A stretch of 36,220 bases of DNA from Candidatus Hydrothermales bacterium. Its GTDB lineage: Bacteria; Hydrothermota; Hydrothermia; Hydrothermales; JAJRUZ01. The position numbers were made by a program. The stretch is from NCBI GenBank assembly GCA_039630575.1, contig JBCNUW010000021.1, positions 1 through 36,220 of the forward strand, given 5' to 3'. This document shows positions 15,001 to 18,000 of this stretch, in pieces (position 1 is the first letter of the stretch; each line of letters begins with the position of its first letter).

Positions 15001-18000
15001 GCTGTTGTAAGAAATGTTAAAAACATAATTAAAAAATCACCTGATTTTCTTATTTTTGGATCAAATAAAGATAAAAATATAGGAAAGATGCTTAAAATTT
15101 TAGAAAGACTTGAACCTAAAAATCTTGTATTAACTCAATCACACATACCAAGAAGAGAAGATCCTAAAGTTATCTATGAAATGGCAAAAAATTTAAATTT
15201 TAAAAAAATAGTAACCTTTGAAGATGCCTACAAAGCTTTTAATTTTTGCTTTGAAAATTCAAATTCAAATTCATTCATACTTTTAGTTGGTTCCTTTTAC
15301 CTTGTTGAACTTGCAAAGAAATTTATGAGTTCTTTTATATAATATAAAATGTTATACAAGAAACTTGGTAAATACGAAATTCTAAAATGGTTAGGAGGAG
15401 GAACCTTTGGAGATGTTTATCTTGTAAAAGACACTTTGATTGATAAACTCTTTGCAATAAAAGTTCCAAGGATAAGAAAGGAAGAATGGGAGATTCTAAA
15501 AAGAGAAGCTAAAGTTTTATCTGAACTTTTGCACGAAAATATTGTTAGATTTTATTCAGTTGACATAATAGATAACAATCTCATAATGACGATGGAATAC
15601 ATAGAAGGAGTCTCACTTAGGAATCTGATAAAGTCTGCTCCTGTTGAGGAGGATTTAGTTTTAAAAATTTTTAAAAAAGTCCTTCTTGCCCTTTCATATG
15701 CTCACACAAAGGGATTTCTTCATAGAGATTTAAAACCTGAAAACATACTTTTAACATCTGATTTTGAACCAAAAATTTCAGATTTTGGACTTGCCCTTAT
15801 TTTTCAGGAAAAAATGAGTGGTAATGTTGTTGGAACACCCCTTTACCTTGCACCTGAAGGTTGGAGAGGGAACTATTCAGAAAGAACTGATATATTTGCT
15901 ATTGGATGTATGATGTATGAATGTTTTGCGGGATTTCCACCCTTTCATGGCAAAACCTTTGAAGAAATAAGAGAAAAAATAAAAAAGGGAAGTTATAAAA
16001 AACTTACCGAAAATGTAAGTGAAAACACAAGAAAAGTTATAGAAAGGGCAATAGATCCTGACCCTGAAAAAAGATTTAAAACAGCAAAGGAAATGTATGA
16101 ATCACTCGAGGAAGGATTGAAAGTAACATACGTGCCACTAATAGATGTAAAAATAGGAGATAAGAGAAAAAATATAATTGATGACTTGACAGATGAGCAA
16201 AAAGATGCTGTAACTACAGAAGAAAGGTTTGTTCTTGTTATTGGTGGTGCAGGAACTGGTAAGACAACTTGTTTGATAAGAAGGGCCTCTTATCTTATTG
16301 AAGTTAAAAATTTTGAACCAGAGGAAATCATAATCACAACTTTTACAGGTAAAGGAATAGATGAAATAAAATCACGATTATTACTTTTTCTTTCAAAAAA
16401 AAATTACTTGTCGTTAAATGTTTCAACTTTGCATAATTTGGGTTTACAGGTTCTTTATACCGGTGGGTCGAGAATTGGATTTAAGATGGAAGAAGCAAAA
16501 GTTATTTCAAGGAGTGAGAGTTTTCAGATAATTAGAAATAATTTCACTGATCTTTCTCAAGTTGAACTCGAAGAAATAATTAAAACTATTTCAATTTCCA
16601 AAATAAATTTACTTGCTCCTGATGACTTATTAAGATCTGATTTTGTTTGGCTAAGAAAATGTGGTTTTATTTATAAAAGATATTCGGAAATTTTAAGGGA
16701 AAATAATTTATTAGATTATGATGATTTAATATTTTATTCTAATTTAATCCTTGATAAGTATGATGATATAAAGGAGAGATTTTCAGAAAATATTAGGTGT
16801 TTACTTATTGATGAATTTCAGGATTTAAGTTATGGTGAGGTATCACTTTTAAAGAAATTGAGAGAAAAAGGTGGGTATTTATTTGCAACAGGTGATCCAG
16901 ACCAAGCTATTTACGGCTTTAAAGGAGCCTCAACGGAATATATAGAAAATTTCGAGAGATACTTTGAAAATCCAAAAATATATTATCTTACAAAATCTTT
17001 TAGAATACCAGAGCATATTTATGATGCTGGTTTAAAGATTCTCTCCAGAATAAAAAGAAGAAAAGAGATTTTCTTTACACCTGCTGAAAAAAAGGGAGAA
17101 AGGATTTTTGTTTTTCACGCTGAAGATGAAAAGGAAGAAGCGAAATTTGTCTCTAAAGAGATAAAGTTATTACTTTCTCAAGGTATTAAGGAGGAGAAAA
17201 TAGCTGTTTTGTCTAGATTTTCTTACTATTTAAAAAACATACAGGAAGTACTTAAAAAAGAAAATATCCCTTTTAATGTTCAAGGTAAATCAAGATTTTA
17301 TATGAAAAGTATAATTAAAGCTTTAAACAGCTATCTTGAATCTGTCCAGTTTGGTAGAAAAAATGCTCTCAAGAAGACTATAAAGTATTTTTTAGGAGAC
17401 AAGAAGATAAGTGATGATATTTTAAAGTTATGGAAAACTCATCAAAAGGAAAAATTTTTAAAAACTCCTTTTGAAATAGTTGACGAGTTTCTTGAAAAAA
17501 TTAATTTTTATGATTTTTTAAAAAATTTGCCTCCAGATCAGGAAAAAGAGGAAAGAGAATCCTTAGATGAATATTTTTTCCTTTTAAAAGAGTATAAAGC
17601 TAAAGAGATAAAAAAATTTTTAGATTCTTTTTCAATTTTAGAGAGTCTTGAAACAGATTCAAGGGAAGGAGGTGTTTTTCTTTCAACAATTCATGGTGCA
17701 AAAGGTCTTGAATTTGATGTAGTATTTATAACTGGTATGGCTGAATCAATTCTCCCAAGTGTTCAAAGCTTATCAAAAAGAAAAGAATTAGATGAAGAAA
17801 GAAGACTTTTTTATGTGGCACTTACAAGAAGTTGTGAAAAAATTTTCATAACAAGACCTAAAGTTAGAGCAGGAAAGAAACTCTTGCCCTCCAGATTTAT
17901 TGAGGAGATGATCATTCTGTGAAAGAGCTAAGTGTTATTATAGTTAATTATTATTCAAAAAATTTAATAAAAAATCTTTTAGATTCTTTACCTTTTAAGG

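Follow-up and report, generated by a model that had tools for sequence, protein, structure and literature searches.

A Hanks kinase fused to a PcrA-derived motor, and its ARPP-1 partner: a possible DNA-surveillance module

Introduction

Why would a bacterium tie a protein kinase to a DNA motor? The window, the whole 36,220-nucleotide stretch that was analysed from a contig of Candidatus Hydrothermales bacterium, encodes in a single reading frame a Hanks-type Ser/Thr kinase followed by a UvrD-like helicase (Table 1). The survey's finding took this protein for a complete kinase joined to a complete UvrD/PcrA helicase, conserved across the phylum and new to bacteria, and proposed a DNA-translocating kinase comparable in logic to checkpoint kinases. 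How much of this portrait holds, and what might such a protein do?

Table 1. Coordinates of the fusion gene, its parts, its neighbours and its partner
Feature	Position	Strand	Basis
Kinase-SF1A helicase fusion gene, 857 aa, without transmembrane segment	15349..17922	+	ORF, domain search, hydropathy
Hanks Ser/Thr kinase domain, residues 9-249	15373..16095	+	PF00069, E 9.1e-54
Variable low-confidence linker, residues 257-272	16117..16164	+	pLDDT <50; without conserved sequence in 29 orthologues
SF1A (PcrA-derived) motor, residues ~277-855	16177..17913	+	Domain search, residue conservation, Foldseek
2B subdomain, shortened and divergent, residues ~655-770, without NxPxRGIG	17311..17658	+	Mean identity 21% vs 49% for kinase
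2A beta-hairpin (separation-pin position), 4 residues shorter than canonical	17857..17886	+	Alignment with canonical relatives
folC, housekeeping, upstream; 6-nt gap to fusion	14068..15342	+	Local context only, common to genus
GT2 glycosyltransferase, downstream; 4-nt overlap with fusion	17919..18770	+	Local context only
ARPP-1 partner, 303 aa, outside the window	C1:34546-35457 (L149:6547-7458)	+	PF20208

Results

The fusion and its kinase

The fusion itself is borne out by the reading frame and by Pfam, which places Pkinase at residues 9-249, UvrD-helicase at 280-539 (E 1.7e-55) and UvrD_C in two stretches (E 7.6e-44); the AIK, HRD, DFG, APE, GTGKT and DEFQD motifs that the survey named are seen directly in the sequence. 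An assembly artefact is ruled out, as the fusion is intact in more than 100 genomes. The AlphaFold2 model has a mean pLDDT of 84.9, with low confidence in the linker, and its best Foldseek match is Deinococcus radiodurans UvrD (E 5.9e-42). A hydropathy peak above 1.9 occurs in just one of 29 orthologues. A scan for putative promoter sites was uninformative, with 43 found and 52 expected by shuffling.

The sequence hallmarks of a Hanks-type kinase are all present: Gly loop, beta3 Lys, alphaC Glu, HRDxKxxN, DFG, APE, subdomain IX Asp and subdomain XI Arg. K38, E53, H125-R126-D127, N132, D145-F146-G147, G162-T163-P164 and P169-E170, together with the family-specific tryptophans W14 and W172, are conserved in 56-57 of 57 homologues (K38 in 56; E53, HRD, N132, DFG, PE, D181 and R242 in all 57). 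Across the family HRD occurs in 79 of 81 members and an activation-loop Ser/Thr in 75 of 81, and such an RD-type loop would be compatible with switching by autophosphorylation. Of all parts of the fusion the kinase varies least (mean identity 49% versus 36%), which, with the invariant tryptophans, suggests that it has a conserved substrate or interface outside the protein. It scores well below the NCBIfam cut-offs for PglW (79 against 990) and MAD6 (153.7 against 460), and the queries used matched no cognate PP2C phosphatase in this genome.

A remodelled motor

Is the helicase complete, as was first thought? Its motor motifs are intact (Q284, Walker A, Ia, Ib, DExQD, III, IV with R552, IVa with R623, V and VI), it has the 1A/1B/2A/2B fold of the SF1A UvrD-like superfamily, and its ATPase and ssDNA-binding residues are near-invariant among 57 homologues, the catalytic ones occurring in 55-57. 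The survey's word "complete" nevertheless goes too far. The GIG sequence of 2B, sought as RG[IVLF]G, is present in 114 of the 153 canonical relatives but in just 2 of the 82 members of the family; the aligned N, P, R and G of NxPxRGIG, held by 50-51 of 51 canonical rows, are unconserved or gapped in the 36 family rows. The 2B span has a median of 143 residues in the family and 170 in canonical proteins, and a median of 8 residues follows PSRF, as against 100. The window's protein likewise ends about 8 residues past PSRF, without a PcrA-type tail, and PF21196 is absent from the 60 fused proteins P0001-P0060. In PcrA and UvrD this C-terminal extension is a Tudor-like RNA-polymerase-binding domain. 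In 63 of 73 members the pin hairpin has 4 residues fewer than in canonical proteins, and its tip carries an aromatic residue, by a loose rule, in 26 of 33, though not in the window's protein.

The fusion thus shares with PcrA, UvrD and Rep (PDB 1pjr, 4c2t, 2is1, 1uaa) the four-subdomain fold and the ATP- and ssDNA-binding motifs, and differs in its N-terminal kinase, its shorter 2B and hairpin and its missing NxPxRGIG and tail. It forms a clade apart from PcrA and misses all three NCBIfam equivalog cut-offs (pcrA 329.6 against 911.2, rep 281.8 against 951.45, uvrD 248.7 against 1144.45). By its sequence it is a PcrA paralogue that has been remodelled, not a standard repair helicase; as a motor that lost GIG in nature and whose 2B and pin are shorter, it offers a test case for models of SF1A unwinding. 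The two ordinary UvrD genes that the survey placed beside it are not there: the window holds no UvrD neighbour, and elsewhere the genome has one PcrA of 681 aa (contig C16) and one RecB/AddA-like helicase of 910 aa (contig C9). Because canonical PcrA is kept, its replacement by the fusion is ruled out.

Distribution and inheritance

Conservation across the phylum was likewise an overstatement. The fusion is found in 117 of 272 phylum genomes and 24 of 43 families; 155 genomes have none, and within the carrier families 117 of 124 genomes have it. Where the survey counted about 95 fused clusters among its best 120 matches, we count 60 among the best 120 listed, with a different word sampling. 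The helicase, kinase and ARPP parts each form one clade, and the helicase tree largely tracks taxonomy; Synergistota copies nest among those of WOR-3, so the fusion has crossed phyla. On this evidence the fusion is inherited mostly vertically. Scans for loci beyond the phylum were dominated by generic kinases. Its dN/dS (0.04-0.16) is similar to that of folC (0.07-0.20) and indicates purifying selection. Among 72,556 plasmids and 50,697 phages no match covered 80% of the fusion, and an IMG/VR scan with a single fusion protein, which detects close relatives only, found no relative.

The survey also noted copies of about 965 aa in Acidobacteriota-type records. P0159, a kinase-UvrD protein of 963 aa that is tied to those clusters by length and architecture only, groups by its helicase with canonical UvrD/PcrA, has a kinase that falls outside the family, and is a separate fusion.

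The ARPP-1 partner

Across 41 fusion loci ARPP-1 is the sole conserved neighbour, and DNA-repair genes show no such conservation. In the present genome, where it lies on another contig, this partner has a full ARPP-1 domain (PF20208, DUF6569; E 2.3e-54). It adjoins the fusion, co-oriented, in 22 of the 41 loci, and 11 of 19 pairs with ARPP-1 upstream overlap or stand no more than 10 nt apart. In this class none of the 15 loci examined has the two genes linked, yet both are kept. Fusion and partner occur together in 112 of the 272 genomes and are both absent from 154, with 6 discordant, a count in which related genomes are not independent and which uses an ARPP profile derived from neighbours of the fusion itself. 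They occupy the same 24 of 43 families and are jointly absent from 6 genomes within five mixed families. As judged from these sequences, a single cytoplasmic ARPP-1 clade is kept and lost together with the fusion, and retention of both genes even when far apart points to a DNA-linked signalling pair. Their distances also correlate (Spearman 0.57-0.63), as expected from vertical descent alone.

The partner clade has invariant Cys, Gln, Arg and Trp residues (Q82 and C104 in 95 of 95), and S171, H173 and R128 are partner-enriched. The SxT at 167-169 was rejected as a partner-specific phospho-site, since its Ser, and likewise its Thr, is shared by 10 of the 14 other ARPPs, a set that includes secreted proteins. 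In a quick tree with few outgroups the sampled sister group contains a HIRAN-ARPP fusion and no signal peptides; secreted ARPP-1 proteins also exist, so the fold is not DNA-specific. Against solved structures, the best VIA match reached Z 5.5 over 40 residues, and Foldseek returned none at E 0.001. An apparent triple ARPP-kinase-helicase fusion, a frame of 1039 aa in one genome, proved to be two overlapping genes, and none of 7,999 candidates was a longer ARPP form, which is weak evidence.

Discussion

The novelty claimed for a kinase fused to a bacterial helicase does not survive comparison with Mokosh. In Mokosh type I (bioRxiv 10.1101/2022.05.11.491447), MkoA joins a Ser/Thr kinase and an SF1 helicase in one polypeptide and is paired with a second gene, as the fusion is; MkoA has a Upf1-like helicase (COG1112) and a PLD nuclease for a partner, whereas here the helicase is UvrD-like and the partner ARPP-1. 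The MkoA profile matches only the fusion's kinase (residues 6-255), and no MkoB match was found among 97 neighbours. Nor is a kinase governed by ssDNA new. YabT of Bacillus subtilis is membrane-anchored and is not known to contain an ATP-driven motor. It is an ssDNA-dependent Hanks kinase that phosphorylates RecA (PMC4754617); the shared logic would be a kinase switched by ssDNA, with sensing in the fusion done by a fused translocase and its ARPP-1 partner. The fusion belongs to neither the Mokosh nor the YabT type. Unlike the PglW and Mad6 kinases of BREX and MADS, it has no multi-gene methylation system around it.

In the open-access literature we found no report of a UvrD-kinase-ARPP fusion or of a kinase-helicase from WOR-3 or Hydrothermae. 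The term "kinase-helicase" was absent among the best matches listed, those for ARPP-1, DUF6569 or PF20208 were all to the eukaryotic ARPP-16/19, and the passages found on conflict systems do not describe a kinase-UvrD fusion. PMC9503650 lists ARG-centred, HIRAN-, WYL- and deacetylase-linked ARPP-1 systems (section 3.8); a kinase-UvrD context is not among them, and "UvrD" does not occur in its main text.

What, then, might the pair do? In sequence terms the fusion couples, through a flexible tether, an intact Hanks kinase of the RD type and a paralogue of PcrA in which the duplex-gripping motif of 2B and the C-terminal tail are missing. With strong constraint on both active sites and every ssDNA-contact motif retained, the DNA-translocating kinase of the survey stands as the best reading, though the survey missed ARPP-1 and took a remodelled paralogue for the standard motor; its checkpoint label is an analogy only. 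We tentatively favour a chromosomal, mostly vertically inherited two-protein module for DNA surveillance. The motor would load at single-stranded gaps or ends and move 3' to 5'; loading or stalling would gather kinase domains, and autophosphorylation of their activation loops would render the kinase active on DNA. The chemistry at the lesion would come from ARPP-1, whose cysteine would react with an exposed sugar, be it at an abasic site, a DNA end or an ADP-ribose adduct, a reaction put forward for ARPP in PMC9503650. The motor might encounter or remove the ARPP-1 adduct, and the kinase might phosphorylate ARPP-1, itself or nearby DNA-metabolism proteins and so time the response. If so, the fusion would be a bacterial motor-coupled kinase reporting single-stranded or damaged DNA.

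This surveillance module draws support from the near-invariant catalytic residues, from the one clade that each part forms, from the HIRAN-ARPP fusion in the partner's sister group, from the loss of GIG and tail and the shorter 2B beside a retained PcrA, from an ARPP-1 that co-occurs, often adjoins and persists unlinked, and from folC-like dN/dS, few PADLOC neighbours and no plasmid or phage match. It is weakened by the want of a conserved DNA-repair neighbour, by the 155 genomes that manage without the fusion, by the existence of kinase-helicase anti-phage systems, and by an ARPP chemistry that is itself a proposal for a fold with no clear solved match. A bolder version is rather doubtful: ARPP-1 would mark lesions covalently, the motor would scan ssDNA for the mark, and the kinase would phosphorylate other proteins independently of RecA-LexA. 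It would give the ARPP-1 fold its first function and bacteria their first motor-coupled damage kinase. The queries used found no SRAP match in this genome, and the likeness of ARPP-1 to SRAP/HMCES-like DNA cross-linkers is a functional analogy only. RecA is present here and a LexA match is absent (the genome is 94.7% complete), but 64 of the 117 genomes with the fusion have LexA, as do 93 of the 155 without it; presence of the fusion does not follow loss of LexA, and replacement of SOS by the fusion is ruled out.

Could the pair instead be a sedentary defence or addiction system? The motor would sense foreign or replicating ssDNA in the manner of GajB or MkoA, the kinase would act either as abortive effector or in regulation, and ARPP-1 would be the effector or an inhibitor quieting the kinase, which would explain why neither gene is found without the other. 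The best PADLOC matches are to GajB over the whole helicase (residues 279-853, E 1e-73) and to Mad6/PD-T4-6 over the kinase; these are, however, generic domain matches. GajB is UvrD-like, works with a partner and also lacks GIG and pin (PMC10681800); in the fusion, by contrast, the hairpin is shortened rather than absent, the ssDNA motifs are invariant, a kinase is attached, inheritance is vertical, and no GajA/OLD nuclease is a conserved neighbour. MkoA's identical two-domain logic, the patchy spread over families, the passage into Synergistota and the description of ARPP from predicted conflict systems (PMC9503650) all speak for defence. Against it stand the near-constancy within carrier families, the largely taxonomic tree, the housekeeping-like dN/dS and the empty plasmid and phage records; PADLOC matches were found in only 6 of 97 neighbours and 3 of 23 loci (the two mad2-like ones in a single locus), and the unlinked genes of this class would be unusual for a defence operon. 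We regard this reading as unlikely, if still a serious contender; were it true, the pair would be unusually sedentary for an immune system, and its genes separable.

A helicase specialised for repair or replication restart, with a kinase that acts in cis only, on the motor or on ARPP-1 as accessory subunit, and with no outgoing signal, seems improbable. Loss of GIG and a shorter 2B would then free a 3'-5' helicase from repression. In its favour, mutation of GIG in D. radiodurans UvrD stimulates unwinding in the 3'-5' direction (PMC3797037), all motor motifs are intact, most members examined have the tip aromatic, and UvrD/PcrA is phosphorylated in several bacteria (tables of PMC4754617). Set against it are the kinase, more conserved than the motor it would serve and with invariant tryptophans of its own, the missing tip aromatic in the window's protein, and the canonical PcrA retained beside the fusion. 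Least probable is a role on RNA or RNA-DNA hybrids, or separate roles for two genes sharing a history: motifs do not reveal nucleic-acid specificity, ARPP is also known from the context of ADP-ribose and polysaccharide systems (PMC9503650) and the distance correlations need only vertical descent, but the closest solved structures are the DNA helicases UvrD, PcrA and Rep, and overlapping genes and joint absence in five mixed families are hard to explain through history alone.

Members of the widespread ARPP-1 family have a predicted active site and a function so far only proposed; here ARPP-1 has one near-obligate partner, built of two well-understood enzyme domains, so that simple assays could address both.

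The fusion protein and its motor

Kinase and UvrD-type helicase do share one ORF, as the survey had found, and both Pfam domains were recovered. The top structural matches of the fusion in Foldseek are UvrD, PcrA and Rep, and every NCBIfam family scored below its cut-off against the protein. The AlphaFold2 model (57 sequences; pLDDT 84.9, pTM 0.61) loses confidence in the activation loop and the linker, which, together with the pTM, suggests that kinase and helicase are two separately folded parts.

Features of the fusion, its surroundings and the ARPP-1 gene
Feature	Position	Detail
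Kinase-helicase fusion gene	window 15349-17922 (+)	857 aa, zero internal stops
Pkinase	fusion residues 9-249	Pfam E 9.1e-54
Activation loop	fusion residues 148-161	low model confidence
Linker	fusion residues 257-272	low model confidence
UvrD-helicase	fusion residues 280-539	Pfam E 1.7e-55
UvrD_C	fusion, two stretches	Pfam
Two large secreted-type proteins	window 242-4699	
hslV, with a CheW-like gene after it	window 12173-12700	
def-fmt and spc-operon tail	window 28666-34330	spc-operon tail
ARPP-1 orthologue	contig C1:34546-35457 (+), outside the window	303 aa, E 1.6e-83

All of 57 homologues have the kinase residues E53, HRD, N132, DFG, GTP, PE, D181 and R242, and 56 have K38. In the motor, Q284 likewise occurs in 56, and the glycines and lysine of Walker A, DExQD, Q519, R552, R623, HxxKGL and EERR..TR in all 57; the ssDNA contacts F332, T360, H362, Y522, W/F524 and R525 are kept in 53-57. 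Among 81 members scored, HRD is present in 79, and 75 have a Ser/Thr within the last six activation-loop residues. The fusion of this genome deviates mildly (TFTGKG, YGFKG). In comparisons with four congeners, the parts of the fusion have dN/dS values of 0.04-0.16, ARPP-1 has 0.12-0.18 and folC 0.07-0.20, with dS close to saturation and three values not computable. Judged by their sequences, both enzymes look alive.

Is the motor a complete UvrD/PcrA, as had been claimed? The tail is shortened, to a median of 8 residues after the PSRF motif versus 100 in canonical relatives; the 2B span is 143 versus 170; and the 2A hairpin segment at the separation-pin position has 25 residues in 63 of 73 family members versus 29 in 110 of 128 canonical helicases. 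RG[IVLF]G, from the duplex-binding GIG motif of 2B, is found in 2/82 family members versus 114/153 canonical relatives. Where NxPxRGIG was aligned, its N, P, R and final G are each present in 50-51 of 51 canonical rows, and 36 family rows show gaps or no conservation at these positions. The motor is thus remodelled, not complete. GajB is described in excerpts of one report as lacking GIG, pin and gating helix, with no DNA unwinding observed there (PMC10681800); for Deinococcus radiodurans UvrD, excerpts of another report that hairpin deletion cuts unwinding and that G424T stimulates 3'-5' unwinding (PMC3797037). Given this motor anatomy and literature, tracking along ssDNA is likely, with or without duplex unwinding. 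By a loose rule, 26 of 33 members carry an aromatic in the hairpin tip (absent in the fusion of this genome), which speaks against a simple "cannot unwind" reading.

Distribution and descent

The survey's conservation across the phylum did not survive wider sampling. Single-protein and profile searches of 272 Hydrothermota genomes, with three candidates scored per genome, concur on 117 carriers in 24 of 43 families; within carrier families the fusion is in 117 of 124 genomes. For the remaining 19 families, many of whose genomes are >90% complete, neither query gave a fusion-level match among the candidates scored. Both domains occur in 60 clusters among the best 120 protein-search matches, the named ones being WOR-3/Hydrothermales and two Synergistetes. 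The best 150 matches of a profile search over 1.84 billion representatives include 31 full-length and 3 partial members and one distant 963-aa protein, P0159, so that the family is small. Named carriers beyond WOR-3 are Synergistota, Thermosulfidibacter(aceae) and "bacterium JZ-2024 1".

In the helicase tree (86 rows; L122, missed by the Walker-A pattern, was excluded), a single branch (SH-aLRT 100) separates the 46 family rows from the others, the class of this genome clusters together (98), and the Synergistota copies are nested among WOR-3; the fusion has been transferred between phyla. Fusion kinases likewise form one group (100/99) in a kinase tree of 36 rows. P0159, a PknB-like kinase with a canonical-branch UvrD, places its helicase among canonical ones and its kinase among unrelated kinases, and is therefore an independent fusion. 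Because the ESM Atlas contains further kinase-helicase clusters, of UvrD type (Acidobacteriota), AAA_11/12 type and Helicase_C_2 type, the pairing recurs. The UvrD clusters there are of 965 and 669 aa, mostly Acidobacteriota; the other two types occur in Bacillota, Actinomycetota and Chloroflexota. In some assemblies, through either assembly error or real decay, the fusion is interrupted (G046:C62), has an in-frame internal gap of ~27 residues (G043:C14), or is replaced by separate kinase and helicase ORFs with ARPP still adjacent (G111:C65).

The ARPP-1 partner

The sole widely conserved neighbour in 41 loci is a 280-320-aa protein matching PF20208 (ARPP-1). It lies next to the fusion in the same orientation in 22 of them (20 upstream, 2 downstream), and of 19 upstream pairs 11 have overlapping genes or a gap of <=10 nt. 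In the 15 loci from the class of this genome it is never adjacent; this genome and its relatives carry it unlinked, in unrelated contexts. Here the gene directly downstream resembles a DAC-family diadenylate cyclase, and the downstream order is kept in genome G041.

A partner-clade profile, built from neighbours of the fusion, finds E <=1e-60 matches in 113 genomes and sets this clade apart from a second ARPP group. Genomes with both fusion and partner number 112, with neither 154, with the fusion only 5 and with ARPP only 1, related genomes not being independent in this count. The fusion-only genomes are G029 (80% complete), G226 (75%), G032 and G079 (weak partial ARPP matches) and G039 (93%, no match); the ARPP-only gene, in G175, reaches a contig end. 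Both genes are missing together inside carrier families from G101, G102, G134, G179 (77% complete), G228 and G261 (66% complete).

A quick tree (54 rows) makes the partner clade one group (99), sister (97) to four planctomycete ARPPs, none with an evident signal peptide and one of them HIRAN-fused. The planctomycete G292 has AbiEi/AbiEii-type toxin-antitoxin genes beside two cytoplasmic ARPP-1 genes, a conflict-type setting for that sister group. The second group has signal-peptide-like N-termini and occurs without the fusion in 34 genomes; its members in other WOR-3 genomes are of 330-430 aa, with or without the fusion, and two (L153, L159) have an extra N-terminal helical repeat region. Q82, R84, C104, E106, R109, W110, R128, Q149 and W153 are invariant in 95/95 partners. 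The partner model is confident (pLDDT 92), and comparison with solved structures gave no clear match. Iyer et al., in a main text where "UvrD" does not occur, place ARPPs in ARG, HIRAN, WYL and deacetylase contexts and propose SRAP-like covalent cross-linking of an ARPP cysteine to sugars (PMC9503650).

Mechanism and known systems

What might the pair do? We tentatively prefer, at somewhat under an even chance, a motor that would load at ssDNA gaps or ends and move 3' to 5', a kinase that crowding or stalling of the motor would switch on by activation-loop autophosphorylation, and an ARPP-1 that would mark or react with a sugar-exposing lesion; kinase targets could be ARPP-1, the motor or nearby proteins. 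The sequences show the anatomy, the conservation and the co-inheritance; we infer every biochemical step here, and any physical contact of the fusion with ARPP-1.

A sedentary defence or addiction pair is rather unlikely, though strict mutual retention would also follow from an addiction or abortive pair, and the interphylum transfer would suit it. What stands against it and favours a resident function is that the fusion is almost fixed within families, has a tree resembling the taxonomy, is under purifying selection and tolerates unlinking from ARPP-1. PADLOC matches of the fusion (GajB, Mad6, PD-T4-6, MkoA) cover one domain each; 6/97 neighbours, in 3/23 loci, match at 1e-10; and 72,556 plasmid and 50,697 phage records gave zero matches spanning 80% of the protein. 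A specialised helicase regulated in cis by its kinase is somewhat less probable again, and an RNA substrate, or unrelated roles for fusion and ARPP-1, is improbable.

By analogy, the DNA-switched fusion we prefer would combine the working of an SF1A translocase with that of a DNA-activated kinase. The protein is neither an orthologue of PcrA/UvrD nor a member of Gabija or of Mokosh, the last described with an Upf1-like helicase and a PLD nuclease (bioRxiv 10.1101/2022.05.11.491447). YabT is known as a Hanks kinase dependent on ssDNA (PMC4754617). Domain pairing and DNA-activated kinases thus both have precedent; the unexplained ARPP-1 partner could make the fusion more than a variation on them. 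The openly accessible literature yielded no account of a kinase-UvrD fusion with ARPP-1, subscription titles lying outside that scope.

Genomic surroundings

The fusion sits among same-strand housekeeping genes (hslV, cheW-like, uppP and folC upstream; a GT2 glycosyltransferase downstream), in an order common to the genus only. The "two ordinary UvrD genes" of the survey are in fact a canonical PcrA (C16) and a RecB/AddA-like gene (C9). One further Hanks kinase lies on C23; this genome (94.7% complete; two Hanks kinases) has no PP2C, LexA or SRAP match. A link of the fusion to LexA was rejected, as LexA occurs independently of it. Within the window, hslV is followed by the CheW-like gene, without hslU; the two large proteins, one a subtilase, have C-terminal FlgD/T9SS-like or similar sorting regions; and the spc-operon tail (S5, L15, secY, adk, map) directly follows def-fmt, without upstream ribosomal genes.
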